A DNA stretch of 64,000 bases from Candidatus Woesearchaeota archaeon. Its GTDB lineage: Archaea > Nanobdellota > Nanobdellia > Pacearchaeales > GW2011-AR1. The stretch spans positions 513,050-577,049 of the forward strand of contig CAZNJU010000001.1 of assembly GCA_964573625.1 (NCBI GenBank), given 5' to 3'. Both the position numbers and the translations under genes were made by a program. The notes under the pieces were generated by a model. That model was not told the DNA's origin and did not search any database. It saw only the letters and a list, made by a program, of their open reading frames with translations. Positions within the stretch are counted from its first letter, which is position 1. Each line of letters opens with the position of its first letter. Positions 9,066-58,585 of this stretch are shown here, one piece after another.

Positions 9066-9080
9066 TTCTCTTGCGAAACA

Positions 9081-9096
9081 ACACAACATCTTGTGG
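9081..9096. promoter_or_regulatory. NrdR box 2
   Basis: ACACAACATCTTGTGg is a second near-identical copy. Its centre is 31 bp from box 1 (about three helical turns), as in canonical tandem NrdR operators. Confidence 0.6.
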
Positions 9097-27522: not shown

Positions 27523-27523
27523 T

Positions 27524-28048: not shown

Positions 28049-28078
28049 GTTTAAATAAAATTGTTCTTACAATAACAA

Positions 28079-40590: not shown

Positions 40591-40645
40591 TAATAAAAAG
40601 CTTACTACTCGTTAAATATATAAACTAGACTCTCGTCGATAAGGA

Positions 40646-41887: not shown

Positions 41888-41966
41888 ACAATTTTGAGGC
41901 TATTTAGTCTGCTCTCTTATCTCCTATACAATTTAAGCAATTTCTATTCAGCAGTACATATACCCC

Positions 41967-42161
41967 TCAATCCCAATCAATAACTTTTTCGTCTTTAATT
42001 TCTCTTATGGATCGTATTATGTCTGATTCTGGAATATCGTCTTCCCCATCTACAATAGCAATAGTACAACCATTCAAATAATCTCCAGTAAATATTTTAT
42101 TGATTAACTTTTTTCCGTATTTATGTTCCAATTCTTTCCTTTTCATATCAACTCTCCACAA
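41967..42161 (-). CDS. small hypothetical protein
   Basis: 64-aa ORF coupled to the HEPN gene (14-bp overlap). Confidence 0.3.
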   Translation of the reverse strand: MWRVDMKRKELEHKYGKKLINKIFTGDYLNGCTIAIVDGEDDIPESDIIRSIREIKDEKVIDWD

Positions 42162-42654
42162 TAACCTTTGTTTCAGAAATTACTTTCTGCGCAAGTTTCA
42201 CTAATTGAGTATAGAGATTGTCATTAAGGGATAAGCTTGTTCCATACTGATACTTTTCGCGTATCTTAACGCTTGTTTCAGAATCATCCGTGATGCCTAA
42301 CGCTGCAATTTTATCAAGTGTATCTTGTGTGAGGTTAATTTTCTTTTCCTCAATAAGAGAGGCAATCAAGGCAAACGTGCATTCTTGATTATGTGATTCA
42401 TAGCCAAACTTGGAAGCAATGGCCAGTAAGCTATGATACATGGCATAAAAAACCGTACTTGCGCTAATATCTGAGAAATTTCCATCTTTCAAATACATAG
42501 TAGCTTTCAAAAAATGCTCTGCCTTTTTCACATGTTCGGTAGATTGCTCTTTATTTGGCTTTATCTTGCGCAGACCTCTATGCATGCTTCCTTCTTTGAG
42601 CTCTTTCTCAGCTTTCCTCAAACACCAATCTAATTTGTTTTTTGCGTGACTCAT
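42148..42654 (-). CDS. HEPN-domain protein (toxin-like)
   Basis: 168 aa, helical, with HEPN-like conserved positions. It overlaps the upstream NTase gene by ATGA. Confidence 0.6.
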   Translation of the reverse strand: MSHAKNKLDWCLRKAEKELKEGSMHRGLRKIKPNKEQSTEHVKKAEHFLKATMYLKDGNFSDISASTVFYAMYHSLLAIASKFGYESHNQECTFALIASLIEEKKINLTQDTLDKIAALGITDDSETSVKIREKYQYGTSLSLNDNLYTQLVKLAQKVISETKVIVES

Positions 42655-43232
42655 GTTAGTACCTCAATTAGCGTATCGTGTCCCGATACAACCAAGCCTT
42701 TGATCGCATTGAGTACAACCTTATCAGGTTTAGCGACGTTCTTCTTTAAATCTTCTTTGGTTTGATAGACCGGATGAATTTTTTTATCGTTTATGGAGTT
42801 AATCTCTTCAATTCCTTTCTTAATCGCATTAAAATTCTTATCATTAGAAACAATGAGGGCATCAATATCGCCTGCCTCTTCATGTTTTTTTAAAACTGAC
42901 CCAAAGAGAATAACCAGTTCAGCATGTTTGATTTTTTTCAATTCGGTGATCCAACGTTTCAGGTACGGATGCGCACTTTCTGCTTCCTTGGCAAGAACAA
43001 ATCGCACATAATTGCGCACATAGTCATTTGAGAGATTAAGCTTGAAAATATGGGCGTTCCCGATCTCTTCAACGCTAAGGATATCTTCTTTCTGAAGCTT
43101 TTGTGCTATTTTCCATGCTCCCATGGGGCTTATATCTAGAAACTTGGCAATCGTGTTCGCATTGTAGTGGACTTCGGGACTTTTCAGTATCGTTGCAATC
43201 ATTCGCATCTCATTATCCGTTACGTTTCTCAT
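42651..43232 (-). CDS. winged-helix + minimal nucleotidyltransferase (MNT, antitoxin-like)
   Basis: The track ORF is 42651..43352. The likely start is the Met at 43232 (MRNVTDNEMRMI...). An N-terminal wHTH (ANTIAKFLDISPMGAWKIAQKL) is followed by the NTase motif LVILFGSVLKKHEEAGDIDALIV. Confidence 0.6.
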   Translation of the reverse strand: MRNVTDNEMRMIATILKSPEVHYNANTIAKFLDISPMGAWKIAQKLQKEDILSVEEIGNAHIFKLNLSNDYVRNYVRFVLAKEAESAHPYLKRWITELKKIKHAELVILFGSVLKKHEEAGDIDALIVSNDKNFNAIKKGIEEINSINDKKIHPVYQTKEDLKKNVAKPDKVVLNAIKGLVVSGHDTLIEVLT

Positions 43233-43360
43233 ATAAACTCCTAGTATATAGTTATAAACTAGCGATATATAAGCTTTATGGTTTACTTGAGTATTCATCT
43301 TTGTATTTATGATTAGAAAAGAATAAATAGACAGGATGAGTAAGAAACGCATAGCGTTTC

Positions 43361-43678
43361 TTAGTTGTTAGGTTCTTTGTTTTCTTTCCCAATCATAAAT
43401 ATCATGGGAATCATTCCCGAATCTTTCTCCATCTGCTCAACTTCTTTCTTCAGATCCTTATGAGAGGTATAGACTTTCATACAATACACAAAACTACCTT
43501 GTTTATCTTTAAGATAAGGGAATTTCTTAAGAATATCTTTCTTTAAGCGCAAGGTCGTCCACGCTTGATCTCCTTCGCTATAAGATAATTTGCCTTTGAC
43601 CTCTAAATTTTCATGCAGCGGGCTAAGGAACATCACCTCCGACTCTTCTTTATGGAGCGGATGCTTATTTGTAGCCAT
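43361..43678 (-). CDS. hypothetical protein
   Basis: 105-aa ORF. Confidence 0.4.
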   Translation of the reverse strand: MATNKHPLHKEESEVMFLSPLHENLEVKGKLSYSEGDQAWTTLRLKKDILKKFPYLKDKQGSFVYCMKVYTSHKDLKKEVEQMEKDSGMIPMIFMIGKENKEPNN

Positions 43679-43775
43679 CTACCTAATTTCTAGTTAGATG
43701 ATTCTATATAAAGGTTTCGCTTGGATTCGCTCTAGCAACCAAGATTGCCTAACGAAACCTTTTAATACCTTAGAG

Positions 43776-43979
43776 ATGATAACTCCCGTTATGGGAAGAC
43801 GTTATAAGCACACTATCACGGTTCGAGTACCTGATTCAGTCTATGAAGCAGTCATGAAACGTGTTAAGCATAAGCGACTCAAGTATCCTTCTTATAGCGA
43901 CGCCGAAGTCATCCGCAAGGCTTTAGTCAAGCATCTTAAGGAAAAGGGATTGTTGGATAAAGATAAGACTTATCTCTAG
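43776..43979 (+). CDS. ribbon-helix-helix (CopG-like) DNA-binding protein
   Basis: The track ORF is 43698..43979. The internal Met at 43776 begins MITPVMGRRYKHTITVRVPDSVYEAVMK...SDAEVIRKAL, i.e. a beta-strand followed by two helices in an RHH pattern. Confidence 0.45.
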   Translation: MITPVMGRRYKHTITVRVPDSVYEAVMKRVKHKRLKYPSYSDAEVIRKALVKHLKEKGLLDKDKTYL

Positions 43980-44041
43980 ATGGAAATGGTCTGTAGAGCA
44001 TTAACAACAACTTATTTATACAGACATTTTCCTTTAAAACC

Positions 44042-45016
44042 ATGTCTCCAGGGCTCAAGTGTAAAGTTCAAGCCTATAATATTAATGTGCGAGTAAAGCG
44101 CCACCGAGATCTAGAAGGTGCGGATGTTTTATATCATGTCCTAAAAGAAATTAATGGATTCACCTACACTTCAACCGACTCTAGGCAGAATATACGAAGA
44201 AAGATAGGTGAGTTTGATTATGCGATGGAGTTTATAAATTTCCCAGATAAGGAAGATAATTTGACTAGAATAGACTTTAAATTTGGAAGGGAAACAAGAG
44301 AGTCATTTAGCTTAAAAGACAAAAATGGGCAAGCGTCGGTTTTAAAGCTTCCAGATGACTCAAATATTTGTTTTGATACGCATGGCTCGTTTATCTTGAG
44401 AAGATTAAAAAATCATTGGTGTTGTGTTTTATTACTCGAAAAACGCCATCATACAACGACTGGTTTGGCGAAGGTTATTGAATACATCGAGAAGGTTAAG
44501 GAAAAATATAGCCTTGAAGCTGACGCAATAGCACAGGAAGCAGATGTTATTAGAAAGATAAAGAGTACTAAAGATGTAAATGCTGCCATAATAAAAAATC
44601 AAAAACTTGATTTAGAAAAAGAGGATGGAAGCGGCACGATACTTGTAAAAAATCGAGAACGAAAGAAATATGAGGCAACTAGTGTGCGTATAAGACTTTC
44701 TGAAGGCAATAGCACTTGGGAAAGATTTGTTAATTTCGCGAAGGATTATCTAAGCATTAAAAGAGAACCTACAAATCAGGAGATACGTGCACTAATTGAT
44801 GACACAGAATTGGTACTTTTAAAAAAGACCATGGCGGATTCTGGAGAGTCTAATAAAATAGATTTATTTAAGGATTTGGTGCTCTTTAAGATGGATGTGC
44901 AACAGCGTCATTCTAGAGAATTAGATTCGGACGACTTTTTTAATAAGTTGTTCACTTTAGTAGATACCAAGACGCTAGATTCCATCTTTGATCTTTCAAG
45001 AAAGCTCTATGATTAA
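44042..45016 (+). CDS. hypothetical protein (island cargo)
   Basis: 324-aa ORF with no recognisable domain. Confidence 0.45.
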   Translation: MSPGLKCKVQAYNINVRVKRHRDLEGADVLYHVLKEINGFTYTSTDSRQNIRRKIGEFDYAMEFINFPDKEDNLTRIDFKFGRETRESFSLKDKNGQASVLKLPDDSNICFDTHGSFILRRLKNHWCCVLLLEKRHHTTTGLAKVIEYIEKVKEKYSLEADAIAQEADVIRKIKSTKDVNAAIIKNQKLDLEKEDGSGTILVKNRERKKYEATSVRIRLSEGNSTWERFVNFAKDYLSIKREPTNQEIRALIDDTELVLLKKTMADSGESNKIDLFKDLVLFKMDVQQRHSRELDSDDFFNKLFTLVDTKTLDSIFDLSRKLYD

Positions 45017-45454
45017 AAATAGATAAAATATACATTTAAAGATTCTGAGCATAGTGAATAGAATTAAAGCGAATAAAAACCAATATATCCAGACATGAGT
45101 TCCATTCGCAAGTGTGAAGATTAAGAGGCTTACAGTTAGAAGGAGGGTTATAAATGCCGTAGAAATTAAAGCATATAACATGTTTTTGTATTCTTTATGT
45201 TTTCTTAGTCTTGTTAATTCTTCTGAGTGCTCAGGATTGTATAGGAAAAGAAGTGAGAACGTTGTTAAGAGAAAACCTATCAAAATTCCTAAGAAACTTA
45301 TTGTTGATTCGTTTATATTGGCGAGAAGAGTTCCTACAAACCCGAATGAATTTCCAAATAAGACAAGGATCACAACAACGGCTATAGAAAAGATTAAATC
45401 AGCCAAATAAGTGGCATCCCCGTATTTTTTAATGAACCAATTAATTAAACTCAT
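44996..45454 (-). CDS. integral membrane protein
   Basis: 152 aa with four TM helices. Confidence 0.45.
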   Translation of the reverse strand: MSLINWFIKKYGDATYLADLIFSIAVVVILVLFGNSFGFVGTLLANINESTISFLGILIGFLLTTFSLLFLYNPEHSEELTRLRKHKEYKNMLYALISTAFITLLLTVSLLIFTLANGTHVWIYWFLFALILFTMLRIFKCIFYLFLIIELS

Positions 45455-45512
45455 ATTTTATTGAAATGTGCTTCCTATATATTAATTGTTATTCTACGAG
45501 ATATTTTGTTAA

Positions 45513-47081
45513 TTAGACCCAAATATACCTCTTCTGTATGTCCATAATAATCTGACCATTTGTATGCATCCAGTCAACGAGATGTTGCAGGTCGTAAAGG
45601 TCGGAGAAAAGCCCCGATCCGCTGACTGCCTCATAAATTTCTCTTAACGTCGGATTTTTAAGATTTCTTATGGCTTCTTGGACTACTGCAAATCGAGCAT
45701 CTGATTTAGTCCTCTTAAGTCTTGTCCAGGTTTCTTCGAACCTGTTATTTTCGATGAGCCCCGTAAAGTTATCTAAGATAATACCTCGTGCGCCTTCAAG
45801 ATCACTTTTGTCAACTCCTATCTTATTTGTTGCTCGCGCTAATGACTGCGCAAGTCGCTTTAAATTTTCTTGAGTTCGTGAAAGCATCCATCCAACCGTA
45901 GACTTTCGCTCATCTTCGTTTTTTATTAAGTCAGATAACACTACGTCGAAATCTTGGGCAATTTTCTGCGTAGTTCCTATATAATCTGTATTGCTTTCCG
46001 CAACGCTTGGATTTAACTGATGGGCATGCACGATTTGAATCCATAAGTCCTCATTCATGTCTTGTTTTACTCTTGCAAGATCAAGATCGTGTTGTTTTAG
46101 AGAGTCAATATTTTCTGGAAGAGTAACTTCTGTTGCCGTAAAGTTTTGAGCTAACTCTTTTAATATCTCTCGCGGTGTGCGGAGGGGAGTACTTAACGTT
46201 GAAAAGATAGAATATTCTCCTCCGAATCTCTTTCTATTTTCTAACTCATGAGCAAGGTAGCTATAAGCTGAATCATAAAAACTATTGAAATAGGTGTTCT
46301 GATTTTGAGGGCGTTCGGCTAACTGGAACTTTATTCCATCAAGGTAAGAGAAACTTGACCCAACAAAAGCTCTTTCAGGCGGAGTTATTGCTCGGTATTC
46401 AGGGGGAGCCATTAACTGTAGAGTCCTTACAAATTCTTGTGCAAAAAGGGTGTTATTTGCAAAAGAAGAGACTGAAATGCCTCCGACTGATCTCTGAACA
46501 TAGGGTGCACTGATTAAAGGACTTTGTAGGGAAAGAGCAAGAGATTTATCAATAGAAAAATAACGACTTAATATTTTCTGAGCAACGTTCTTCTCATAGT
46601 CTACATCAACGTATAGGAAGTCTGACTTCATTTCTTCCCAATCTTCAATGACGAGTGCTTTTACCACCATATTTTGACGCTCATTGGTGACGGTTATCTT
46701 TTTTGATTTTAGAATTCTGATTAAAGAGTACTCTTTTGGTTGTTTTTTCATATCATAAGAGAAGAGGCCTAAAACCAATGTAGAAGGGGCGTTTTGAATT
46801 GCTGAAAGACCAAAATAGTTATAATTTCCATAAATAGCAATCGCGCTTTGCCACTGTGGAGACAATTCAGATGGCAAGACATAGAGTTCTATTTCATTAA
46901 CAGATCCACCATCTCTAGCTTTAGAAAAAGTATCATGATACCAGGTTTCTACTTTCTTCATGTGCTTCTTCTCGTGTTTCAAAAAATCAATATTAACGTG
47001 CTCTCTTTGCCAGGGAAGAATTTTTCTTGTTTTTCTCCATGGATAGTACTCAGTCAGAGAAAGGTTAGGAAGTTTAGGCAT
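45513..47081 (-). CDS. large hypothetical protein (island cargo)
   Basis: 522-aa ORF with no recognisable domain. Confidence 0.5.
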   Translation of the reverse strand: MPKLPNLSLTEYYPWRKTRKILPWQREHVNIDFLKHEKKHMKKVETWYHDTFSKARDGGSVNEIELYVLPSELSPQWQSAIAIYGNYNYFGLSAIQNAPSTLVLGLFSYDMKKQPKEYSLIRILKSKKITVTNERQNMVVKALVIEDWEEMKSDFLYVDVDYEKNVAQKILSRYFSIDKSLALSLQSPLISAPYVQRSVGGISVSSFANNTLFAQEFVRTLQLMAPPEYRAITPPERAFVGSSFSYLDGIKFQLAERPQNQNTYFNSFYDSAYSYLAHELENRKRFGGEYSIFSTLSTPLRTPREILKELAQNFTATEVTLPENIDSLKQHDLDLARVKQDMNEDLWIQIVHAHQLNPSVAESNTDYIGTTQKIAQDFDVVLSDLIKNEDERKSTVGWMLSRTQENLKRLAQSLARATNKIGVDKSDLEGARGIILDNFTGLIENNRFEETWTRLKRTKSDARFAVVQEAIRNLKNPTLREIYEAVSGSGLFSDLYDLQHLVDWMHTNGQIIMDIQKRYIWV

Positions 47082-47155
47082 AAAACAAGGGAAGAGAGAT
47101 ACTTAATAAGAATTGTTATACTCTTTATTAGGCTGTACCGATAACTTTTCTAAAA

Positions 47156-47503
47156 TTATCGTTGAGATGCTCCCCAACTAAATATGAATAGCCCTGGTAT
47201 CCCTGCTGTGAAGCCGAAATTTTTCTTAAACTTATCCTTATTTTCTATAACATCTATTCCATCAGGGTTTATGTCTCTTATTAGAATGAAAGCTGTTTTT
47301 GTTGTACCCATTTGACCACTTACTTGTCCGTTTAATAGATTTTTACGAATTAGATACTCTAATGCAAAATGCACTCTGTCTCTTTGCCAGCCAGTTATTC
47401 TTTCTATGTCTTCAGTATGCAACTGTTCTTTTCCCTCGATTTTATTTTGATATATCCAAGCGAGAAGTTCGCCTGCATCTTTTTGTATTACCACAAAAAT
47501 CAA
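47156..47503 (-). CDS. hypothetical protein (possible winged-helix)
   Basis: 115-aa ORF. RDRVHFALEYLIRKNLL is recognition-helix-like. Confidence 0.35.
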   Translation of the reverse strand: MIFVVIQKDAGELLAWIYQNKIEGKEQLHTEDIERITGWQRDRVHFALEYLIRKNLLNGQVSGQMGTTKTAFILIRDINPDGIDVIENKDKFKKNFGFTAGIPGLFIFSWGASQR

Positions 47504-48303
47504 CTCAGAATTATATATTTAAGTCTTACTCAGCTAGCAGCTTTTCGGGCTAAACCGGTTAACAGAGGTCTTGAACGCATATTTGCTGATAGCCTTCCCG
47601 ATTGGTATTCAGATGCCCAAGATTCAGCGTACGTCCTACGTTGATCAGGAGTTAAGTCTTTAGGCATTGTATCATAAGCAGTTCTTAGAAAGGACTCAAC
47701 AGCTCTATCTTTTACGTCTATCCTCCCTACTTGTGCTTTAATGACAGAACAAAACCCTCGATAATCCATTTTGAATAGAACAAATTAGATAATTTAAGTC
47801 TTGTGGCTATGTCAAAAAATTTATTAACTGCAACTTCTCCACATTCTGATGTCTTCCGTAACTCTAGATGAAAATGCATTAGAGTCGCTCGTAAAATTAG
47901 TAACTGTAAAAAATCGTTTAGCTTCAGCACTAGTTTCGGCTCCGCACTCAATGGGAAATCGAATTGCTGAGGCTCGAGAAACTTATTCTGCAGGAATTGA
48001 GCAAAGTCTCGCACCTTACCGTAGTATCTCCGTTATCGATCAAGTAATACGAGAATATGAATCATTAGCAAATATGTCTGATAAAGCAATAATATCTACT
48101 TTCGGAGAGATATGCCTCACGGATTCAAATCACTAGATTTCTATCTCACGGGCATTGTTTTTTTTTGATCTTTAGTTAAACGTTAAGTATTTCAACCTTA
48201 AGCGATAGAATTATACATGGTAGAAGAAAGACAATCGTTAGAGTTGAAACTTTAACCAAATAATCACCACAAGATATATTAACAACTCCTGCTATGAATT
48301 GAC

Positions 48304-48618
48304 ATGAAACTCGGCGTAATTTGGGGTGTAGCAATTATTGTGTTGCTTCTAGCAGGTGTTTTTCTTATCTTGCGTCTGCCTCATGGACAAAATTTCATAC
48401 TATCGCAATCTCCTACTGATAACTCTGTCGCCAGTGATACGCGCGGCGCAGGATGGTGTCCATCCCGTCTACCTGTATGTTGTAAGTGTGTAGTATCTGG
48501 TGCGGAAGGATTCGGATGCTATAAAGCGGGAACCGTGTGCAGCAATCTTGTAGGACATGGTGTGTGTGAATCTTTCTCAGGCAACAATGGTGCGTGTATT
48601 CGAACATCCTCACAATAA
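48304..48618 (+). CDS. secreted cysteine-rich small protein (class III signal-like N-terminus)
   Basis: 104 aa with an N-terminus MKLGVIWGVAIIVLLLAGVFLIL, followed by a domain with 8 Cys and many Gly. Confidence 0.45.
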   Translation: MKLGVIWGVAIIVLLLAGVFLILRLPHGQNFILSQSPTDNSVASDTRGAGWCPSRLPVCCKCVVSGAEGFGCYKAGTVCSNLVGHGVCESFSGNNGACIRTSSQ

Positions 48619-48918
48619 ATAAGTTAGTCGTATAATATTTAAGCGCGCAAGCACTTCTGGGCATATACTTAAATTTTAGTGTTGGATGTTGCGGTGTCGA
48701 TAATTCTTACTTCTTTTTTATTATTCTCAGGTTGATGAGTCTGAACTCCCTTAGTGACGACGAAACGGGTAAGGGTGCCATCGTTTCTGCCTTATCCATT
48801 CGGCTCTGATTTTCTCTCGGAGCAAATAAAGCCGACAATCCATTTATGTCAGATAAAATTGGCAAAGTTAACGTTGCCCCCAATATTGCTGCAGGTACAG
48901 AGTATTGTCTTAGTTTAT

Positions 48919-49296
48919 TTATCGGTTTATTTTTAGAGACGCTAGATATTGTTTATAAAGATTATATCTCTCCGAAATTATTCCCTGGCTATAAGCTTTT
49001 TCTAATTTTTCAGAGGCTTTTATAACACTTCTTGCACTATGCGGATTAAACGAATAAAGTTCTTCATCATTATCTGCAATAATTACAAGGCGTTGCAAAC
49101 CCAAAAACTTCTTTATTTTATCTAGGGAGGTCTCTGAAACCATCTCAGCTGCACGTCTGCCATAAAACTCTAAATCAAGGTTTCTCGCTATTCCTCTTAA
49201 TTCAGCAGCTTCTCTATCATTTATTTGTCCACTAGCGCGACCTTCTTCGATAAGTTCAAGTCCTCCACCAATTTCATCTAATTTCGGTTTTGTCAT
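48919..49296 (-). CDS. hypothetical protein
   Basis: 125-aa ORF. Confidence 0.4.
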   Translation of the reverse strand: MTKPKLDEIGGGLELIEEGRASGQINDREAAELRGIARNLDLEFYGRRAAEMVSETSLDKIKKFLGLQRLVIIADNDEELYSFNPHSARSVIKASEKLEKAYSQGIISERYNLYKQYLASLKINR

Positions 49297-49388
49297 ATTT
49301 TTTATAGAAGCGACATGTATTTAAACCTTACTATATGTTACCACTTAACAGATACATATATTTATAAAAGGTAGGAAAAGATGATTTT

Positions 49389-50138
49389 ATGGCTAAAGTT
49401 GAAAAGAGCCCAGAAGAGTATGGTTATCGATTTGTTAAGTGCGAACCCCCTATAAGGACCGGAAAAGAAAGTAACGCTCTTGCTCAGCGATGGTTAGAGA
49501 CTCAGGATCCTGCTCTGAAAGAACGGCTGGTGATAGGAAATCGTCGCTTTGTAGGTGCGCTAAGTGCACGATTTACATGCTTTCCGCCTATAATGCGTAG
49601 AGATTTAATCGGGGAAGGGTACGTTGGTCTTGTCAAAGCAATAAACAATTATGACGAAGGAGGATCATTTTCAAGTTATGCATTTAAACACATATTCGGA
49701 GGAATGATGGGGTATCTTGCTGCCAATAGAAGGCTGATTAATATTCCGTATCAATTTATTAAAGAAGCACGAGAGACAGGGAAATCTGCTGAAGAAATTG
49801 AGGATCTCGTTCTTAAGCAGGCTAAGAAAACAGATGAGGCACAATATTTCCTTATTGATGAAGTTAAACATACTCTTAGAGCTCCACAGGACTCAGAGGG
49901 AGAGAGACGCGAGCAGTTAGATTTTCTAAGAGAGGCATTCAGTGTTTTATCCCTAAACAAGAATGAACGATTTGTGATTCAAACCAGATATCTTCAAAAT
50001 CGACACGAGGTTCCTACCTTTAGACAGTTAGGAAAAGCAATGAGATTAACAGGAGGACGAGTACAGCAAATACATGCAAGAGCTCTTCGTAAAATAAGAT
50101 GGTATATGGAGAAAAAAAGATATTGCGAAGCTAGCTAG
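49389..50138 (+). CDS. sigma-70 family-like protein (regions 2 and 4)
   Basis: 249 aa. DLIGEGYVGLVKAINNYDEGGSFSSYAFKHIFGGMMGYLAANRRLINIP aligns to sigma-70 region 2.1-2.4 (DLIQEGNIGLMKAVEKFD...FSTYATWWIRQAI...IRIP). The C-terminal FRQLGKAMRLTGGRVQQIHARALRKIR aligns to the region 4.2 HTH (LEEVG..[20 protein letters not shown]). Confidence 0.65.
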   Translation: MAKVEKSPEEYGYRFVKCEPPIRTGKESNALAQRWLETQDPALKERLVIGNRRFVGALSARFTCFPPIMRRDLIGEGYVGLVKAINNYDEGGSFSSYAFKHIFGGMMGYLAANRRLINIPYQFIKEARETGKSAEEIEDLVLKQAKKTDEAQYFLIDEVKHTLRAPQDSEGERREQLDFLREAFSVLSLNKNERFVIQTRYLQNRHEVPTFRQLGKAMRLTGGRVQQIHARALRKIRWYMEKKRYCEAS

Positions 50139-50149
50139 TTAATTAGAGT

Positions 50150-50692
50150 TTATTGACTTAATGTCTTTAGAACATCGGCTTTCGTAATAACTCCCTTGAG
50201 CTTACCTAGAGAACTAACCAATACAAGAGGATAAAATTTGAGTAAAGAAACAATAGCAGATAGCTCTGTAGTGTCTGCAATAATAGGGGGGCTTTCGACC
50301 ATTATATCGAAGGCCTTTTTTGAGCGTGCTGAATCCACGTTTTGCTCTAATATAGCAGACTCGGTAATGAGTCCTAAGACACTATAGTTTTCAATAACGG
50401 GGGCTTGAGAAATGTTATGTTTAGTAAGAAGTTCAATTATTTTTTGTAATGGTGAGTTTCTCGGTATATAGATGATCCCTTCATGCATAATATCTTTAGC
50501 TTTCTTTTCTTCATGTTTCGCTAGATTAGTGATTGCTTCTTCTATTTTTTTAACATAAGAATAGGTAGGGTCAAGCTTGCCCGCCTCTATTTTAGCTATC
50601 ATAGACTGGCTTATGCCTGCTCTTTTGGCAAATTCGTGCTGCGTTAAGTCAAGTTGTTTACGTATTTTCTTTAGATGAGTTATATCAAACAT
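50150..50692 (-). CDS. XRE-family HTH + tandem CBS-domain transcriptional regulator
   Basis: 180 aa. An N-terminal HTH (LTQHEFAKRAGISQSMIAKIEAG) is followed by two CBS repeats. It is divergent from the downstream plus-strand operon. Confidence 0.75.
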   Translation of the reverse strand: MFDITHLKKIRKQLDLTQHEFAKRAGISQSMIAKIEAGKLDPTYSYVKKIEEAITNLAKHEEKKAKDIMHEGIIYIPRNSPLQKIIELLTKHNISQAPVIENYSVLGLITESAILEQNVDSARSKKAFDIMVESPPIIADTTELSAIVSLLKFYPLVLVSSLGKLKGVITKADVLKTLSQ

Positions 50693-50780
50693 AATTATTT
50701 TAAAAAAAGCACCTATATAAATATTCCTATAAGAATAAATTAATCAAGATATTATTTATACATCTGCCCCATATAAGGAT

Positions 50781-51122
50781 ATGGAATTGTTTAAGGATAT
50801 ATCCCCTCTGCCAATTATAAAGGGGCGGCAAGGAAATATTGTAGCAATGGAAATTCGAACTCGCTCGGGGGCAGAGACTCTCTTATTTCAAGAACTAACT
50901 TCAAAAGAGCGTTTAGGAAGAAAATTAATAGGTACGCCTGTTGGAAAAAATCTTGAACATTGTGTCTATCTGGGATTGAAATATCATCCAGGTTTTCCAG
51001 AACAAGCGGCTGCTTTTTATATTGACCAGACACCCGATCCTCTTTTAGAGCAATTAAGGCAGTTTCAACCAGGATCTGTAAAAATTGAATTTTATGCGAG
51101 GGTGGCATCAAAATATGAATAA
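50781..51122 (+). CDS. hypothetical protein (operon gene 1)
   Basis: 113-aa ORF. Confidence 0.45.
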   Translation: MELFKDISPLPIIKGRQGNIVAMEIRTRSGAETLLFQELTSKERLGRKLIGTPVGKNLEHCVYLGLKYHPGFPEQAAAFYIDQTPDPLLEQLRQFQPGSVKIEFYARVASKYE

Positions 51123-51462
51123 TAGAGAATTAAGCGAAAAGGTTTATTTATTTGGTCAAGAAGCTAAAAAGAAAAATTCTTTCTTGGGAGCGCGCATTAT
51201 GGATTCGGTTTCTCGATTACTTGCATATCCCGGTCAACTTGAAGGACTTATTGAGCCTGAAGTAGCTCAGATACGTGGCTTACGGTCAGTTGCCCCATAC
51301 ATCACGAGAGTTATGCAAGGAGAGTCGTATGAATCTATTCTACAGGATATCCCTGCACGTTCTAGACCAACAAGACGAACCTACTCTCATGAAAGAAATG
51401 ACCAAAAAGAATGGGACGGATCCTGGGACAATAGTGTTCGAATCAGAGAAGAGGAGAGCTAA
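51115..51462 (+). CDS. hypothetical protein (operon gene 2)
   Basis: The track ORF is 51085..51462. The likely start is the Met at 51115 (MNNRELSEK...), which overlaps the upstream stop by 8 nt (ATGAATAA). Confidence 0.4.
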   Translation: MNNRELSEKVYLFGQEAKKKNSFLGARIMDSVSRLLAYPGQLEGLIEPEVAQIRGLRSVAPYITRVMQGESYESILQDIPARSRPTRRTYSHERNDQKEWDGSWDNSVRIREEES

Positions 51463-51549
51463 ATCTTACCTCGAGAGCAAAAAGTTATCCCTTAAAAGAA
51501 GCAAAAACTTAAAAAGGCCAATGAGGGGGTTTTATAAGGAAGCACTAAA

Positions 51550-52377
51550 ATGGAAAATACAATTAGCGAACTAAATGATCGTAAAGATAGTCTAGCTCTT
51601 TCTAACTATTCTTCATGGGCAAGTACTAGAGATATAGCGCGTGATCATAAGTTGCGGGACGAAATTGCTGATTTAGCAGAAAAAGGAAGGAATCGAAAAA
51701 ATCGTTTTAAAAAATTACAGGGGTTAAAACTTAGAGACTATAAATATTACAATGAGATAATTTCTTTTATTAAAGAGACTCGACATAAGTATGATCAAAT
51801 AGGAGACGAAAAGTCACTTGAAGGCTTAAAAAGTAACGGTCTTTCTTTTGTGAATCGTTTTAGAGCCAATAAAAAAGAACTTCTAGCAAGAGGCATGGAG
51901 TCGAAAAAAGAATTACAATATTGTAAAAGCTATGTAGAATGGGGATATTTCTTAGGTAGCCTTTATGGAAGTAAATTCATTCCCATGAATATTGGCGATT
52001 TCTTAAATGTTATTGGGCCTGAAGGTATTCTGAGCCCTAGAAAAATGAGTGAACGACTCAATCAAGATCGGGCACTATTTGAAATTAAGAAAAAAGAAAT
52101 TAGAGTTTCGTTCGAGTCACGTTTCGACGATTATATCGAGTACATGATGAGTATAAATCCTCAAGGAAAATCTCCTATAGCGCGAGTCAGCGCATATAAT
52201 GCGTTAGAAGAGGCGGTTACTAAATATCAAATTAACTCTTCTAACTTAGATTCTCATCTTAAAATTGCTTTGCAACATATTGATTGGGGATTGCGTGAAG
52301 GGTATAAATCATTACAGCCGAGGTCAATAAATGAAGTAAAAACTCGTGAAATAATTAGGGGAGAACTTATAGCATAA
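51550..52377 (+). CDS. hypothetical protein (operon gene 3)
   Basis: 275-aa ORF. Confidence 0.45.
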   Translation: MENTISELNDRKDSLALSNYSSWASTRDIARDHKLRDEIADLAEKGRNRKNRFKKLQGLKLRDYKYYNEIISFIKETRHKYDQIGDEKSLEGLKSNGLSFVNRFRANKKELLARGMESKKELQYCKSYVEWGYFLGSLYGSKFIPMNIGDFLNVIGPEGILSPRKMSERLNQDRALFEIKKKEIRVSFESRFDDYIEYMMSINPQGKSPIARVSAYNALEEAVTKYQINSSNLDSHLKIALQHIDWGLREGYKSLQPRSINEVKTREIIRGELIA

Positions 52378-52814
52378 TGGTAAATCAACAAAATTTTAGA
52401 AAAAACGTCTTGACCGTAGCTCAAAGACACTTGTCATATATACTAACAGACGAAAAACTCGGCCTTAATTCAAGAAATTATAATAAAAAGAGAGCCTTAG
52501 AGTTTTACGCCTCCGCTTTAACTGCTGCAGGGATGCCTGAGGCGATTCAGGACTTATACGATTTGGAAAGTAAGGCAAAAGTTAGTGTCGCCTCCTCAAA
52601 ATATAAATTGCAGAATGTCTTTCATGTTCTAGGCATTAAAGATAATGTGACTATTTTTGAAGTTCTTGAATTTACCTCAAGTCAAGTAGAAAGAAGAAAT
52701 TCTCCTCGAGGAATGGAATTTATGGTAAACGAAAATGCAGTAGAAAAGATTATCGATTTTCTTAATAAAAAATCTAAAATGGACTATACAAATTTAGGAG
52801 GTAGTGGAAAATGA
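52377..52814 (+). CDS. hypothetical protein (operon gene 4)
   Basis: 145-aa ORF with a TAATG overlap to the upstream gene. Confidence 0.45.
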   Translation: MVNQQNFRKNVLTVAQRHLSYILTDEKLGLNSRNYNKKRALEFYASALTAAGMPEAIQDLYDLESKAKVSVASSKYKLQNVFHVLGIKDNVTIFEVLEFTSSQVERRNSPRGMEFMVNENAVEKIIDFLNKKSKMDYTNLGGSGK

Positions 52815-53623
52815 TTCATGGAAATATTTTAGATATGTTTTCTCCAGAAGATTTGACTGATAAGTCTCAGGGTAAAAATGCTAATGAAAGATTAGCTCCC
52901 CGTTATCGACGTAGTTACTCGGCAAGTCCAGTGAATATTCTTATTAGGGCAGAAGAAAGTGATCATTTGAGGAACTTAACTGTAAATCTTAGAGACTTCT
53001 TGCGTGAAAACATGAATATGGCCCAATATGGATTTCTACATAAATTACTCGGCAAGAATTGGAGCGAGAGATTACGCCTTCCCCTAGAATTTAGGGATAT
53101 GGCTTGTGAGGAATTTATGGTTTTTATCAATGAACGCTTGGGGGAAATACAGGAAAAAGTTGAAATCTTACGCGAACATTACGATAATACTGGATTTGAC
53201 GGGCGTTCAGTCCCAATACAGGAATTCATTCAAGTTCCGTTTAATATGGCTTCGAGGGATAAAATTCTCAAAACCTATGAAGACGTTCGCCAGGGAAAGA
53301 CGTCACGATACCCTTATGCTTTCTTCCACCCTAGAAATACAAGAGTGCCAAAGATTCTTACCCGCCATTTAGTCGATGATATCTTAGGTTTACCTCATAC
53401 GGAATCCCTTCCAGACAAGTTAAGACCCTCTCACTTTAGTGAATATCAATTAGGAGGAATGCTAGGGCAGTATTTTCGCGGTAATATCGAAAGAGCATTA
53501 CAACACGCGTACAGTCTAGAAGAATTCCCTCAATTGTATAGAAGAGGATATCAAACAAGGGATGTGCTGCACGAGGTATTCCAAGGCCTCAATAATAAAC
53601 TACGGGAAAAAAAGAATGAATAA
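52811..53623 (+). CDS. hypothetical protein (operon gene 5)
   Basis: 270-aa ORF with an ATGA overlap to the upstream gene. Confidence 0.45.
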   Translation: MIHGNILDMFSPEDLTDKSQGKNANERLAPRYRRSYSASPVNILIRAEESDHLRNLTVNLRDFLRENMNMAQYGFLHKLLGKNWSERLRLPLEFRDMACEEFMVFINERLGEIQEKVEILREHYDNTGFDGRSVPIQEFIQVPFNMASRDKILKTYEDVRQGKTSRYPYAFFHPRNTRVPKILTRHLVDDILGLPHTESLPDKLRPSHFSEYQLGGMLGQYFRGNIERALQHAYSLEEFPQLYRRGYQTRDVLHEVFQGLNNKLREKKNE

Positions 53624-56600
53624 TCAACAACTACTTGCTCGATTTACAATTCCTGAGCTTAAAGCAGCAGCAGACCTAAAGAAATATACAGTTAACTTGA
53701 AGAAAAAATTTAAGAGGGCTGAAAAGAAAAACTCAACAAAGCTTAGAGAAATAGCTACGCTGGAAATTGAAGAAGAAATAAAAAGAAGGAAAAGCGAACC
53801 GGATTATAATCCTTTTTTTGACGATGTATCTACCACAGAGATAATTTCAGAATTAGAAGAAAGACTTCTTAAGCCAGATTCTGTAACGGGTAGACTTAAT
53901 TTGAAGGCAATTCACTCTTTCATCCAAGGGTCATATTATGAAGGCAAAATTTCCCCCAAATTGGAACATCATCACCCTCGCTCAGAATATAGGGCCAAGT
54001 CTAAATCTCTTGTTTCTAGTAATGCAGTAGAAGATGATTTACAAAAAGTGATAGATGAACAGAGAAAAGATGCTCGGTTAGCGAACAATCCTTTTTTAGC
54101 TTATTTTATCGCCAGGGATGTCCAAGGATCAAATATATGGAATAAATTTGGTTTAAGGGGTTTGTTGAGAGAAGTCAAAGAGCGCACAGGATTGGCACCA
54201 GTCTCTTGGAAAGGGGGGGCCATGTCCTATGACGGATTTTTTACGCTTCAAGAGATCTTAACTAAAGACATAAAATCTGGAGAATTCAAGTATTTTGTTC
54301 CTCAAGGAGTTTATTTGATGGCGCAAGACTTACAAAAAAGAGGAACAAAACTTAATGTTTCTGTAACCTCTTTCAATTTAAATTCAAGGAAAAAACTAGC
54401 TGCTCTTTTAGAAGAAGATGAGTCTAAGATAAAAAGAGATTGGAAACCGCACAGATTTGACATGACTTTAGACGCAATAGAAACTTCTCTTGATTTTATG
54501 AGGAGGAAATATCAAGAGAATCCAGATGCATTTTTCGAAAGATACGGCTCTCCTCAAGGAACTAATAATCTAGTTGAGGATATGAAGCCAGAACGCGAAT
54601 TTAAAACTAATCTTAGAAAAGTTCATACTCTGCTTGGAGATGGCGAATCTCTTTCCAAAATGCTTGACATAGAAGATGAGCGATTTAAGACGAAATGGAA
54701 CCCTTCGGTAATCCAGATATCTCCTTCTGAGCTAGAGGTTGTAAGGGATATTTTGCATCGTTCATTGAATGAGGATAAAAATAAATTTTATGCCGTTTAT
54801 GGTTCTGCTTTCGGCACTGTTATTCTCAGTAAGGAGCTTGCAACAAAGGGATTGGATATCAGTCCCGCAAGATTATCTTCTGTTTTGGTTAATACGGATA
54901 AAGCTTCAAGCATTCTTGGAATTAGGGATGATGAATTTGAAAAAAGGTGGAATGTCAAAGAGTTTAGCGATGAATATCCTATTTTCGATACCACAATGAA
55001 AAGACTTAAAGAGGCTTATAATAAAGATCCCGATACATTCTTTTCTCGTTATGGTTGTGATATAGGGGCCTTCAATGTCGCTCAAGACCTCAAAGGGCAA
55101 GGGGGTGAAAAGTCAATTAAAATGCAAGTTGTTTCCAGAATTATAAGGGAAGGACAACTTATTTCACGTATTTTAGACATTAATGATGATCGGTTCAAGA
55201 CTCACTGGCACCCATCACAAATAGTTCCAGATTACGATGATGCCGAAAAAGTATTAGAATTTATGCGCGCCAAGCACAAAAAAAACCCAGATGCGTTTTT
55301 TGGAAGGTATGGTTCTAAACTCGGGCTCTATTATTTGATGAAAGATTTAAGCGACGTACCTGAATTGAGAACGAAACCAGATCAAAATTTAAAAGGTATT
55401 GCTTATTCCGGAGAAAGATTGTCCCGTTTACTTGGAATTAAAGATACAAGATTTTCAAGCGCATGGCATCCTCGAAGTCTAACGCTTAATTCACAGCAAG
55501 TCGATCAAGTTGGAGAATTTCTTAAGGACAAATATGATTCTAATCCTAAATCTTTCTTTAAACGATACGGAGCAGAAGACGGGCTTTTACAACTATCGCG
55601 AGATTTGGAAGAAGAGCAAGGCGTTAGATTATCTTCAAGTAGGTTAGGAAATATACTTATGGATGTCGAGGCTACACAACAGCTAATCGGAATAAATGAC
55701 CCTAATTTTGATAGTAAATGGAATATTCGTTCAATTCAGGTTAAAAACGGTATCCCCGATCAAGTTGGAGAATTTCTGAGAACTCAGTATGATCAAGATC
55801 CAACACGCTTCTTTGTGCGCTATGGTGGAAAGACTGGCCAAGTTTTAATGTTAGAAGATCTTCGTAAAACTGGCATTAAAATCCCCCTTATGCAATTAGG
55901 GTCACTAATTGGAAAGTCAAGTCTTGTTTCTAGATTAACTGGCATCCCCGAGTCTGAATTTGAAGGACGTTGGAGAAGCAGGCATGTTGGAATGAAAAGA
56001 ACTCATATTTCAAGAATTACAGATATATTAACAAATGCTTATCACGAAGATCCAGAGTTGTTTTTCGAAAGATACGGTGGGAAAGAAGGAATAGTCAACT
56101 TAGCCGAGCGGCTCAAAGAAGACGATGTTCATCCCAATTTACACTTCATATCAAATCTCATTGGAGATCCAGAGACCGTACAGGAGTTAATGAAGGTTGA
56201 AGATGATAGATTCCTTGGTGAATGGGCTCCTAGGAAGGTCAGTATATCTTCGCGACAATTAAGACCTACTATTGATTTCTTACGACGTTCCTATTTCGCT
56301 GACAGTAAAAGATTCTTTGATCGATACGGGTCTAGGGCAGGAATCTATAATTTGGCAATTGATTTAAATGAAGGGGGCATGTTGGCAAGTGGAGATATGG
56401 AGAGAATATACGATTTAGTTGCTCGGCCTTCCATTCAAGAAGTTTTAGGTATTCGCGATCCGAAATTTGGTGAAAAGTGGAATCCTGCTAACATTCCTCT
56501 CAATCTCAATGAGTTCCGTGCTATTTCTACTCATCTTAAGGAGCAATTCGATAAAAATCCAGATACCTTTTTCGATTATTATAGAAAGCCTTTAAGATCG

Positions 56601-57440
56601 ATTATATTAGGTAAGGAAGCTGAAGCCTTAGGTATCAATGAGAATCCTCCTGTTTTTTCAGTAATTTTAAATGATGGTAAATTTGTTGGAGAATTAGTGG
56701 GATCTGCTGATAAACGATTTGCAGACACCTGGCCTCGTAAAGCTTATGTAATGCTACAGGGAGCTTATCCGACCATGAAGAATATGGAGCAATCTATTGG
56801 CCAAGGATTAGAAAGGATGGCTGAAAGTTGCAGTTTACCTTCTATGGGTAGTCCATTAGGTAAAGATGAAAGAGAATATCTCGCTTTACGATATGGTCTA
56901 CGCATGGTTAATGAGAACACAGCACACCATGTTGTTGAATTGTATGCAGGTGCCAAACAAAAAGCAATTAAGAAAAATATTAAAGAAATACTTACACAAG
57001 ACGCCAAAGATATGAGAGAGTTATCTTCTATTAAAAACTTCAAAGAAGTTTCAGAATTTGGTGATGAGGCATTTACTAATTTAGCAGGACATTTGCTTTA
57101 TAGTTTTGACCCGTCTATTAGAGCAGCTGCAGGACATAAAATTCTTGAACTATATACTCCTACCTTTCAACGAATAATTGCTAATCGCAACATTCCAGAT
57201 ATCTCAAAAGGATATGATACGTTTAGTAAATACTGTGAAAACTTTGATATGTATGCTATTAAGTTTGGAGGGCTAAAGGAGAGAAAGCAGGTATGCCCCG
57301 TACCCTTGCCTGGTAGAGTATACAGTATTATTCAATCTATTGGAAGTGGTCGCTACTATGATTGGAGCGATAATGTGATGAGATCTCTAGATGTTAACGA
57401 TGATAAAGAAGGAGGTTATCTTCACGAAATAATTAGTTAA
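53616..57440 (+). CDS. giant tandem-repeat protein (about ten ~85-aa repeats + unique C-terminal domain)
   Basis: The track ORF is 53562..57440 (1292 aa). The likely start is the Met at 53616 (MNNQQLL...), an ATGAATAA overlap like gene 2. Repeats recur with the core pattern [LI]G[IV]xDxxFxxxWxP ...(~40 aa)... NPDxFFxRYGxxxG. Confidence 0.6.
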   Translation: MNNQQLLARFTIPELKAAADLKKYTVNLKKKFKRAEKKNSTKLREIATLEIEEEIKRRKSEPDYNPFFDDVSTTEIISELEERLLKPDSVTGRLNLKAIHSFIQGSYYEGKISPKLEHHHPRSEYRAKSKSLVSSNAVEDDLQKVIDEQRKDARLANNPFLAYFIARDVQGSNIWNKFGLRGLLREVKERTGLAPVSWKGGAMSYDGFFTLQEILTKDIKSGEFKYFVPQGVYLMAQDLQKRGTKLNVSVTSFNLNSRKKLAALLEEDESKIKRDWKPHRFDMTLDAIETSLDFMRRKYQENPDAFFERYGSPQGTNNLVEDMKPEREFKTNLRKVHTLLGDGESLSKMLDIEDERFKTKWNPSVIQISPSELEVVRDILHRSLNEDKNKFYAVYGSAFGTVILSKELATKGLDISPARLSSVLVNTDKASSILGIRDDEFEKRWNVKEFSDEYPIFDTTMKRLKEAYNKDPDTFFSRYGCDIGAFNVAQDLKGQGGEKSIKMQVVSRIIREGQLISRILDINDDRFKTHWHPSQIVPDYDDAEKVLEFMRAKHKKNPDAFFGRYGSKLGLYYLMKDLSDVPELRTKPDQNLKGIAYSGERLSRLLGIKDTRFSSAWHPRSLTLNSQQVDQVGEFLKDKYDSNPKSFFKRYGAEDGLLQLSRDLEEEQGVRLSSSRLGNILMDVEATQQLIGINDPNFDSKWNIRSIQVKNGIPDQVGEFLRTQYDQDPTRFFVRYGGKTGQVLMLEDLRKTGIKIPLMQLGSLIGKSSLVSRLTGIPESEFEGRWRSRHVGMKRTHISRITDILTNAYHEDPELFFERYGGKEGIVNLAERLKEDDVHPNLHFISNLIGDPETVQELMKVEDDRFLGEWAPRKVSISSRQLRPTIDFLRRSYFADSKRFFDRYGSRAGIYNLAIDLNEGGMLASGDMERIYDLVARPSIQEVLGIRDPKFGEKWNPANIPLNLNEFRAISTHLKEQFDKNPDTFFDYYRKPLRSIILGKEAEALGINENPPVFSVILNDGKFVGELVGSADKRFADTWPRKAYVMLQGAYPTMKNMEQSIGQGLERMAESCSLPSMGSPLGKDEREYLALRYGLRMVNENTAHHVVELYAGAKQKAIKKNIKEILTQDAKDMRELSSIKNFKEVSEFGDEAFTNLAGHLLYSFDPSIRAAAGHKILELYTPTFQRIIANRNIPDISKGYDTFSKYCENFDMYAIKFGGLKERKQVCPVPLPGRVYSIIQSIGSGRYYDWSDNVMRSLDVNDDKEGGYLHEIIS
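54430..56950 (+). repeat. intragenic tandem repeat array (~255-bp period, ~10 copies, diverged)
   Basis: The protein-level repeats (e.g. LDIEDERFKTKWNP, LGIRDDEFEKRWN, LDINDDRFKTHWHP, LGIKDTRFSSAWHP, IGINDPNFDSKWN, TGIPESEFEGRWR, MKVEDDRFLGEWAP, LGIRDPKFGEKWNP, VGSADKRFADTWP) map at ~250-260-bp spacing. They are diverged at the DNA level. Confidence 0.6.
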
Positions 57441-57441
57441 T

Positions 57442-57972
57442 ATGTCAAAAAAACCTAAAAGTCTTAGACGTCAAGTGGTTGAACAATATTTTTCTTACAT
57501 TGAAGGAGACCAGACGTTACAACAAGGAGCATTTAATAAAGCGATTGCTGAAGGCGCAACTCTATTCCTTGAAATAGGAAGTTTATACAGAGATTCCTCT
57601 CTAGCAGAATATATCATGGGAAGACGTCCAATGGAAACGACTGCGAATCAATCGTATTCGCCGACCCCCGATGCGGCAATAGGGCAGGAGTCAAGGCAAG
57701 TCGTTTCAAGAAAGAAGCCTCCTCGAACTCACACTGCAAAAAAAGTATGGGTCGAGGTTGTGCAAGAAAAGGAACTATTAGCTGAGCCAGGATTTAATTC
57801 ACTGGAAGGAGTTATGAAAAGACTGGGAATAGATAGAAAAATACTGACACGAATTCTTGAAGAAACTCATTTCTGCATTGAACAACGCACATACGGTGGA
57901 AGACAACTTGAAGGTATTTCCGACTCAACGTATGAACAAGTCAGGAAATATGTAAGAAGAACACGCTCGTAA
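57442..57972 (+). CDS. hypothetical protein (operon gene 7)
   Basis: 176-aa ORF starting 1 nt after the giant gene stop. Confidence 0.45.
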   Translation: MSKKPKSLRRQVVEQYFSYIEGDQTLQQGAFNKAIAEGATLFLEIGSLYRDSSLAEYIMGRRPMETTANQSYSPTPDAAIGQESRQVVSRKKPPRTHTAKKVWVEVVQEKELLAEPGFNSLEGVMKRLGIDRKILTRILEETHFCIEQRTYGGRQLEGISDSTYEQVRKYVRRTRS

Positions 57973-58170
57973 AGTTAATATTGGCCATGTTATTGAGGCA
58001 CTGGAAATCCAATATACTGGGGATTATTAATGCCTTTAAATTTACTATCCTTAAGAATTCGATCTATCGCCTCTACTTTCTAAGTCTTGACTTTCAATTT
58101 CTCTAGCTTGCTGAGCATATTTTCATACTACTCCCAACTATTATTTAAGGCTATTGTACTGGCTTTTTGA

Positions 58171-58575: not shown

Positions 58576-58585
58576 AGAAGGTTAC

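Follow-up and report, generated by a model that had tools for sequence, protein, structure and literature searches.

A sigma-70-family gene in an archaeal genomic island

The sigma-70-family gene and its relatives

Sigma factors define transcription initiation in bacteria, and archaea use TBP, TFB and TFE. Here we describe an open reading frame (ORF) for a sigma-70-family protein in a 64,000-nucleotide stretch of contig CAZNJU010000001.1 (assembly GCA_964573625.1, Candidatus Woesearchaeota archaeon); this whole stretch is called the window below, and its features are collected in Table 1. The first-pass annotation of the window had likened the ORF by eye to sigma-70 region 2 and to the helix-turn-helix (HTH) of region 4.2. 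Both peptides quoted there are present in the translation, and Pfam, the NCBIfam model TIGR02937 and a phmmer search against PDB sequences agree with the assignment. When the two Pfam profiles were run, as had been proposed, both scored above gathering: Sigma70_r4 (PF04545) reached 33.0 bits against 24.1 over amino acids (aa) 188-237, and Sigma70_r2 (PF04542) 26.2 bits against 24.0 over aa 66-114, the latter being a narrow, marginal pass. TIGR02937, which describes the sigma-70 superfamily, scored 69.8 bits (cutoff 42.9), and 47 NCBIfam sigma models matched in total; all equivalog and subfamily models, however, stayed far under their cutoffs, among them sigma-32 (70.3 vs 315 bits), RpoS (59.2 vs 378.7 bits) and FliA/WhiG (57.0 vs 189.6 bits). 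The top-scoring profile was PHROG 351, ‘RNA polymerase sigma factor’ (91.8 bits, E 8e-26, aa 21-244), and phmmer retrieved 62 sigma chains from the PDB, with SigA at the top (E 6e-13) and alignments spanning regions 1.2-2.4 (aa 30-137) as well as region 4.2 (aa 186-243).

Structure prediction, the other check that had been suggested, led to the same family. An AlphaFold2 model built from 20 sequences has a mean predicted local distance difference test (pLDDT) score of 79.5, with the values for sigma-2 and sigma-4 given in Table 1, and the best 50 Foldseek matches in the PDB are bacterial sigma factors throughout (sigmaS, SigA, sigma32, WhiG, SigB), with a probability of 1.00 and E-values down to 5e-8. 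Template modelling scores are low (~0.35) because the sigma-2 and sigma-4 domains are freely arranged. Membership of the protein in the sigma-70 family, far above chance, is confirmed.

At its N-terminus, the protein carries a signature of which residues K6, P8, E10, Y11, G12 and R14 are unchanged in 8/8 members of the clade described below (alignment A1). This signature lies upstream of the point where alignments with bacterial sigmas start (aa ~21), and aa 1-12 are modelled with low pLDDT. Since the RpoH, RpoS and SigA alignments begin at aa ~21-30, region 1.2 is present. The region 2.2 motif, DLIGEGYVGLVKAINNYD, is near the bacterial consensus, and region 2.3/2.4 (FSSYAFKHIFGG...LINIP) retains F and Y without the W-W pair, a pair that is also missing from many alternative sigmas. 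The middle segment is predicted to form helices at aa 121-130 and 140-152, followed by a linker at aa 155-169 with pLDDT below 50. Sigma-3 (PF04539) was not detected by Pfam in this ORF nor in the six other clade members listed, whereas bacterial sigmas in the same comparison do carry Sigma70_r3. Region 4.2 holds the canonical S-K-E-R-V-R-Q-I in the clade, and G-G-R-V-Q-Q-I in the window copy.

Table 1. Positions of the sigma-70-family ORF, its parts and the surrounding features in the window
Feature	Position	Strand	Remarks
Sigma-70-family ORF	49389..50138	+	ATG start; 249 aa; stop TAG at 50136-50138
TATA-like box TTTATA	49361..49366	+	starts 28 nt 5' of the sigma ATG; archaeal leaderless-promoter geometry
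Clade N-terminal signature K-x-P-x-EYG-x-R (KSPEEYGYR)	49404..49430	+	aa 6-14; alignment A1
Regions 1.2-2.4 (sigma-2)	49446..49733	+	aa ~20-115; Pfam r2; RpoH, RpoS and SigA alignments; pLDDT >90
Short middle segment	49734..49895	+	aa ~116-169; two helices and a disordered linker; without detectable sigma-3
Region 4 (sigma-4 helix-turn-helix), FRQLGKAMRLTGGRVQQIHARALRKIR	49896..50135	+	aa ~170-249; Pfam r4; SigA and RpoS region 4.2 alignments; pLDDT ~85-93
Regulator with HTH_3 and CBS pair (XRE-CBS)	50150..50692	-	convergent with sigma; 11 nt between stop codons
Divergent promoter/operator of the XRE-CBS gene	50714..50760		two TATA boxes flanking a palindrome, TATTC-N6-GAATA in the window
113-aa protein with invariant G-K-x-L-E-H-C-x-Y-x-G-x-x-Y-x-P-x-F	50781..51122	+	118-aa homologue at L007 4778-5134, 41% identity
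Compositionally atypical region (genomic island)	40600..59500		by composition; borders approximate; no flanking direct repeats found
Tyrosine-recombinase-like gene	40646..41887	+	left island edge; weak, 21.7 bits against gathering 27.1
HEPN (weak) and nucleotidyltransferase (weak) pair	42148..43352	-	just right of the integrase-like gene
VirB4-like conjugal-transfer ATPase (TraG P-loop/DUF87)	61869..63941	-	12 kb from the sigma gene

When 1.84 billion representatives were searched exhaustively with phmmer, 11,600 matches came back, of which only six are full-length (P0019-P0024; 241-257 aa, 118-146 bits, 35-37% identity), the next match scoring 73 bits. Together with the window ORF and P0002 these form a clade of eight members, i.e. 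eight clusters at 90% identity, which were aligned as A1. All eight are full-length (241-257 aa), with identities of about 35%, and 20 positions are invariant among them, including those of the N-terminal signature and the core of region 2.2. Eight intact ORFs at ~35% identity with 20 invariant positions that cluster in known functional motifs imply long-term purifying selection. Neither a single-protein scan nor a scan with the clade alignment detected a clade member in 185,579 GTDB species representatives, all bacterial phyla included, and a scan of IMG/VR with the clade alignment detected none either. JGI metagenomes hold one 2-kb clade locus, the record name of which, Hain-H41-01um, suggests a small-pore filter fraction. 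The clade is small, old and divergent, and apparently archaeal-only.

A placement among extracytoplasmic function (ECF) sigmas, which the first-pass annotation had brought up, did not hold. The 40 nearest relatives outside the clade match RpoS (31), RpoD (26) and RpoH (26) models at E <= 1e-40, where one relative may match several models, and just 2/40 match the sigma70-ECF superfamily model. Because the nearest relatives are of the RpoS/RpoD/RpoH type and ECF matches are essentially absent, the clade is, on the sequence comparison, derived from group 1-3 sigmas with loss of a recognisable sigma-3, and not from ECF sigmas. Judging by the same relatives, the clade most probably goes back to a gene taken up from bacteria.

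The genes next to the other clade members, as far as they are diagnostic, all look archaeal in type. On a 70-kb contig (L006), P0024 stands in the order TIM, sigma, class I aldolase, NT5C and PGM, among pentose-phosphate genes; the TIM scores 171.7 bits against the cutoff of 132 of NF003302, which we take to be the model for the short archaeal-type TIM, and falls short of the general TIM model. P0023 (L005) is followed by an aldolase of the same archaeal class I family as that of P0024, and then by an NT5C-like ORF seen by eye. Motifs common to both in A1 suggest that P0023 is the sister sequence of P0024, and their contexts were therefore counted as one observation. P0020 (L011) adjoins a family I ProRS, and P0022 (L007-L010) follows an XRE-CBS regulator, a 282-aa and a 118-aa protein, in that order; a TrmB-like regulator and a PIN/MazE pair lie close by. 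Three relatives (L005, L006, L011) have a TATA box ~24 nt 5' of the ATG. It may be noted separately that at L006 9283-12141 and L005 237-1935 genes of central carbon metabolism surround the sigma-like gene (order TIM, sigma, class I aldolase, NT5C), and that L006 also encodes G6PD, 6PGL, 6PGD, transketolase and Ru5P epimerase, a complete oxidative pentose-phosphate set being unusual for an archaeon.

Host, promoters and island neighbourhood

The genome around the gene had been called archaeal on account of L10e, L35Ae, RpoH and archaeal aminoacyl-tRNA synthetases. Most of this stands: the window encodes L35Ae, a ribosomal protein restricted to archaea and eukaryotes (56.1 bits), L10e (71.7 bits) and a ThrRS with the archaea-specific editing domain (152.7 bits). 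RpoH/Rpo5 was not found in the window, neither by motif search nor by a Pfam scan of small ORFs. The contig is supported by independent Logan assemblies: SRR16481182 (20,021 bp) repeats the gene order around sigma, and SRR32910811 (974 bp) holds the sigma gene, the copies being identical in independent samples. The SRR16481182 contig starts at ~43742 of the window and would be expected to end at ~63762, breaks that may mark strain-variable junctions in or next to the island. By its sequence context, then, the sigma gene is resident in the genome of what looks to be a Woesearchaeota/Pacearchaeota-type DPANN archaeon.

The promoters in front of these genes are archaeal in layout. TATA-like boxes occur at -31..-25 from the ATG in 15/45 core genes and in 9/29 genes of the island or its right flank, against a mean of 1.1-1.5 such boxes in any other 7-nt window, and the boxes of the sigma, XRE-CBS and 113-aa genes lie at -28, -29 and -26, respectively. 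Bacterial -35/-10 promoters of the sigma70 type are at chance in 43-60 kb (51 vs 48.5 +/- 8). Throughout the window, TATA-like boxes cluster 26-30 nt 5' of start codons and Shine-Dalgarno motifs are few, which together suggest that transcripts in this genome are mostly leaderless.

The XRE-CBS regulator had been noted as a neighbour of the sigma gene in the island. It has more than 240 orthologue clusters (53-66% identity), the sources of which, where named, are Candidatus Woesearchaeota, Candidatus Pacearchaeota, Nanoarchaeota and archaeon GW2011_AR20, and its gene is found among housekeeping genes (ThrRS, DNA ligase, TFE-alpha, ProRS), with no sigma nearby, in three further genomes of this lineage. 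On the basis of these orthologues and settings, XRE-CBS is best described as a lineage-wide core regulator of Woesearchaeota/Pacearchaeota and not as island cargo. No match to the protein was found in IMG/VR. Upstream of its gene lies a ~45-nt operator, TATAAATAAT-TCTTGA-AAAA-TATTCC-TATA-GGAATA-TTTATA, in which opposed TATA boxes surround a palindrome. This element is near-invariant in five genomes (the window; L010 at ~919-1007; L029, L030 and L032 at ~7930-8000), while the flanking proteins are just 35-66% identical, and it looks like an autoregulated divergent promoter kept across the lineage.

Several candidate links around this operator were tried and rejected. A ~50-nt intergenic element, near-identical in the window and L007/L010, was considered as a target of sigma, but it is also found upstream of XRE-CBS in three more genomes with no sigma nearby and is thus not specific to sigma. 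Seventeen IMG/VR matches to an 18-mer of the operator are due to chance, with a flank identity of 18-30/78 and no proteins of the module. The operon beside XRE-CBS in L032 (301/124/242/84 aa) is not homologous to 282/118/sigma/91 despite similar sizes, and the single BLAST match to it is an artefact of ORFs called through conserved promoter DNA.

Besides XRE-CBS and the ATPase, the 113-aa gene is the only gene that recurs near a member of the sigma clade (L007-L010). No family, PADLOC or structure match was found for its product, a PDB profile search gave no significant match, and a single-sequence AlphaFold model was unusable (pLDDT 39.8). The 113/118-aa protein could be a functional partner of sigma, as far as co-occurrence goes. 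In all, the window and L007-L010 have four genes in common, namely XRE-CBS (60% identity), the 113/118-aa gene (41%), sigma (35%) and the VirB4-like ATPase (34%), which makes this a recurrent neighbourhood with n=2.

That the gene lies in an island with an integrase nearby, as had been proposed, agrees with the composition, and the integrase-like gene at the island's edge is a weak match (Table 1). Correlations of tetranucleotide z-scores are r 0.87-0.92 for 7-kb segments of the core and r 0.67-0.76 for segments at 38.5-59.5 kb, with the lowest values at 45.5-56 kb and a return to 0.81 at 56-63 kb; GC content is 0.37 in the island vs 0.40 in the core. The region at ~40-59 kb is a true island by composition, with mobility genes in or near it. 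Convincing att-type flanking direct repeats were not found in 36-64 kb, where the right border may lie beyond the window, and no tRNA gene adjoins the island, the only one in the window being at 975-1049. The VirB4-like ATPase shares 28-33% identity with plasmid-borne conjugation ATPases of the Gram-positive ‘CD1110 family’, and a homologue (34% identity) lies ~2 kb from sigma in L007 (7882-8508) / L009 (2779-3933). Its gene reaches the right end of the window, and the element that carries it may extend further. The HEPN and nucleotidyltransferase genes overlap by 4 nt, which is the layout of a HEPN/MNT toxin-antitoxin module.

Two other readings were considered and rejected: a viral origin of the island, as none of nine neighbouring proteins has a PHROG match, and a role as a defence system (MZA or other), as the nine neighbours have no PADLOC match and similarity is confined to the sigma domain. 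The operon divergent from XRE-CBS has as its largest gene one for a 1292-aa protein (53562..57440(+)) with at least eight tandem repeats of ~85 aa at 54393-56429, in which W, F, Y, G and G are invariant (consensus LLGI-D-RF---W-PR ... DFLR--Y--DP--FF-RYGS--G--NL--DL). Comparison with Pfam, PHROG, PADLOC and PDB sequences gave no match for this protein, and a PDB profile search with the 85-aa repeat gave no significant match; a resemblance of its C-terminus to sigma regions 4 and 2, seen by eye, was rejected at an hhalign probability of 0.07%. Elsewhere in the window, 25954..27522(+) and 28079..29920(+) encode proteins of 522 and 613 aa without a Pfam match, in a stretch (25954..29920) with a positive AT skew of up to 0.27, the strongest in the window. 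The N-termini encoded at 22188..22646(-) and 23050..23811(-) resemble archaeal class III (type IV pilin-like) signal peptides by eye (…KKGLSDIVTNVLIILLVLVAVGIIW…); neither protein has a Pfam match.

Proposed role and alternatives

Intact sigma genes that are under selection in archaea raise a simple question: what does a sigma do without its polymerase? We consider it rather probable that the product is a sequence-specific DNA-binding regulator that works alongside the archaeal basal factors. The sigma gene would be transcribed by TBP, TFB and RNA polymerase (RNAP) of the host from the TATA box at -28, and its product would bind DNA through the region 4.2 HTH, possibly also through sigma-2, to regulate transcription. 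In doing so it would act within the archaeal basal machinery, like other bacterial-type regulators of archaea, and not as a specificity subunit of a bacterial RNAP. The gene itself has probably been retained as an accessory gene that shifts between genomic contexts.

Other bacterial-type regulators with operators are found in this genome, namely NrdR, with boxes upstream of nrdR-RNR, and XRE-CBS, with its palindrome, and these operators imply that bacterial-type regulators evidently work here. NrdR (Zn-ribbon and ATP-cone; 8591..9031(-)) is encoded directly upstream of a class II ribonucleotide reductase (5730..8591(-)). Preceding nrdR, at 9050-9096 on the minus strand, is a pair of 16-bp palindromes, CCACAAGATGTTGTGT and ACACAAGATGTTGTGG, spaced 31 bp apart; from the box consensus, we take this pair to be the classic tandem NrdR-box arrangement. 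By these features, NrdR seems to give this archaeon a second working regulatory system of bacterial type.

We must however take into account several points that weigh against a plain regulator in an archaeal host. The DNA-binding role is one that we infer. Region 2.2, which in bacteria binds the clamp helices of RNAP, is among the best-conserved parts of the clade, with D72, I74, G75, G80, A84 and Y88 invariant. Since a plain HTH regulator has no obvious use for this region, the conservation hints at an interaction with RNAP. Pfam and profile scans found no large ORF resembling bacterial beta/beta-prime in the window, an inspection that covers 64 kb of a contig of ~760 kb. Furthermore, the assignment to DPANN is based on the source names of the orthologues of one neighbouring gene and not on a marker-gene phylogeny, and the archaeal identity of the short relative contigs L004, L005 and L011 is based on one or two neighbours.

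The conservation of region 2.2, which a plain regulator leaves unexplained, leads to an alternative in which sigma-2 would dock on the clamp coiled-coil of archaeal RNAP, a site that all multisubunit RNAPs have conserved. The protein would then redirect or modulate archaeal RNAP at particular promoters, either by serving in initiation or melting as an alternative factor or by competing with TFE or Spt4-5. An aromatic residue (Y or W) stands at the position equivalent to sigma70 Y430 in 8/8 members, the clade has had time to diverge to ~35% identity while resident in genomes that look archaeal, and the clade-specific N-terminal motif could provide a new interaction surface. In the same direction, the clamp coiled-coil/clamp helices are bound by sigma, TFE and Spt5/NusG alike (PMC3382729), and DPANN are without TFE-beta (PMC7289017). 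However, the island promoters look like ordinary TATA promoters. The equivalents of sigma70 Q406 and N409, residues that are important for core binding, are replaced throughout the clade (by G, and by Y/F), and sigma-3 with its linker, the part threaded through RNAP in bacteria, is reduced; the beta-flap, the partner of sigma-4, also differs in archaeal RNAP. We therefore regard such docking as unlikely, and the further claim that the clade has been retained because of it, so that the protein would be a true alternative factor for initiation or promoter melting by an archaeal-type polymerase, or would compete with TFE/Spt5, as more doubtful still. If true, it would mean that a bacterial sigma has been re-wired to the archaeal/eukaryotic-type transcription machinery.

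Set beside the plain regulator, a true sigma for a bacterial RNAP, encoded either elsewhere in the genome or in a bacterial cell reached by the mobile element, would account for the recognisably intact regions for core binding and -35 recognition, for the foreign composition, and for VirB4-like ATPases near both the window sigma (12 kb) and its L007 relative. The first-pass annotation had likewise allowed for an element with a host range that spans bacteria. This is not favoured by the data: the TATA boxes of the sigma and island genes are archaeal and spaced like those of core genes, -35/-10 promoters do not exceed chance, the clade is not found in GTDB representatives or IMG/VR, and its relatives lie beside archaeal-type housekeeping genes. 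The window holds no large beta/beta-prime-like ORF, and DPANN with sigma-70 are reported to have TBP, TFB and TFE and to be without anti-sigma factors (PMC8204110). A bacterial polymerase as partner is thus improbable, slightly more so than docking on the archaeal one.

About as improbable is a functionless relic of horizontal transfer that is heading to decay. The patchy spread (8 clusters vs more than 240 for XRE-CBS), the location in an island of unknown genes, and the recognition residues of region 4.2 in the window copy, which are off the clade consensus (GGRVQQI vs KERVRQI), would all fit such a fate. Conversely, the ORF is intact with a well-placed promoter, 8/8 members are full-length with 20 invariant positions, and identical copies occur in independent samples. 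Lastly, an assembly chimera or bacterial contamination, for which the atypical composition at ~40-59 kb could be cited, is very unlikely because the lineage-wide core regulator lies 11 nt from the sigma stop codon, a separate 20-kb assembly repeats the gene order, and the promoters are laid out in the archaeal way, the neighbours of the relatives being archaeal in type as well.

The locus offers a compact test case: 249 aa with an archaeal promoter, core-binding-like and -35-binding-like motifs, and a new N-terminal motif. If the protein were to bind archaeal RNAP, this would be a major surprise; if it is a plain regulator, a basal factor has been recycled after cross-domain transfer.

Comparison with known systems

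The first-pass annotation held that archaea do not carry sigma factors, a statement that has been outdated since sigma-70 genes were reported in DPANN in 2021 (PMC8204110). Castelle et al. (2021, PMC8204110) described these genes, fam00359, as ‘particularly prevalent in Woesearchaeota’. The same study excluded mis-binning, found no anti-sigma factors, noted the presence of TBP, TFB and TFE, and called the mechanism unclear (PMC8204110). The window gene resembles fam00359 in lying in a Woesearchaeota/Pacearchaeota-type genome, in having informative neighbours that argue against mis-binning, and in having no anti-sigma gene nearby. Set against the paper's description of fam00359, the clade of the window gene is rare (8 clusters), without detectable sigma-3 and with an N-terminal motif of its own. 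A full-text literature search found no functional study of archaeal sigma-70 proteins. One provirus paper lists an archaeal provirus, JAGTQZ010000009_pro, with the annotation ‘sigma factor RpoN’.

Among bacterial sigmas, those of groups 2 and 3 (RpoS, RpoH/sigma-32, FliA/WhiG, SigB/F/G) align with the window protein in regions 1.2, 2.1-2.4 and 4.1-4.2, and the best named NCBIfam models are sigma-32, RpoS and FliA/WhiG. Unlike them, the window protein has no Sigma70_r3, carries an extra N-terminal motif, and stems from an archaeal host with no bacterial RNAP in the 64-kb window. From ECF (group 4) sigmas it is set apart by the presence of region 1.2 and by nearest relatives that are not ECF. 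Phage sigmas are similar in that PHROG 351 is the top profile, and in the small size of the window protein and the location of its gene in horizontally acquired DNA; in a tblastn search of 50,697 phage records, identity to sigmas of Bacillus, Klebsiella, Staphylococcus and gut phages was 25-30%. In contrast to phage sigmas, the clade is not in IMG/VR, and no neighbouring gene matches a PHROG. MzaA of the MZA anti-phage system shows a weak likeness in sigma-2 (NCBIfam 43.4 bits, PADLOC 39.5 bits), but its cutoff is 800 bits and its length ~700 aa, and the nine neighbours in the window match no PADLOC model. On this comparison, the window sigma is a further member of the DPANN phenomenon published in 2021, with features specific to its clade.

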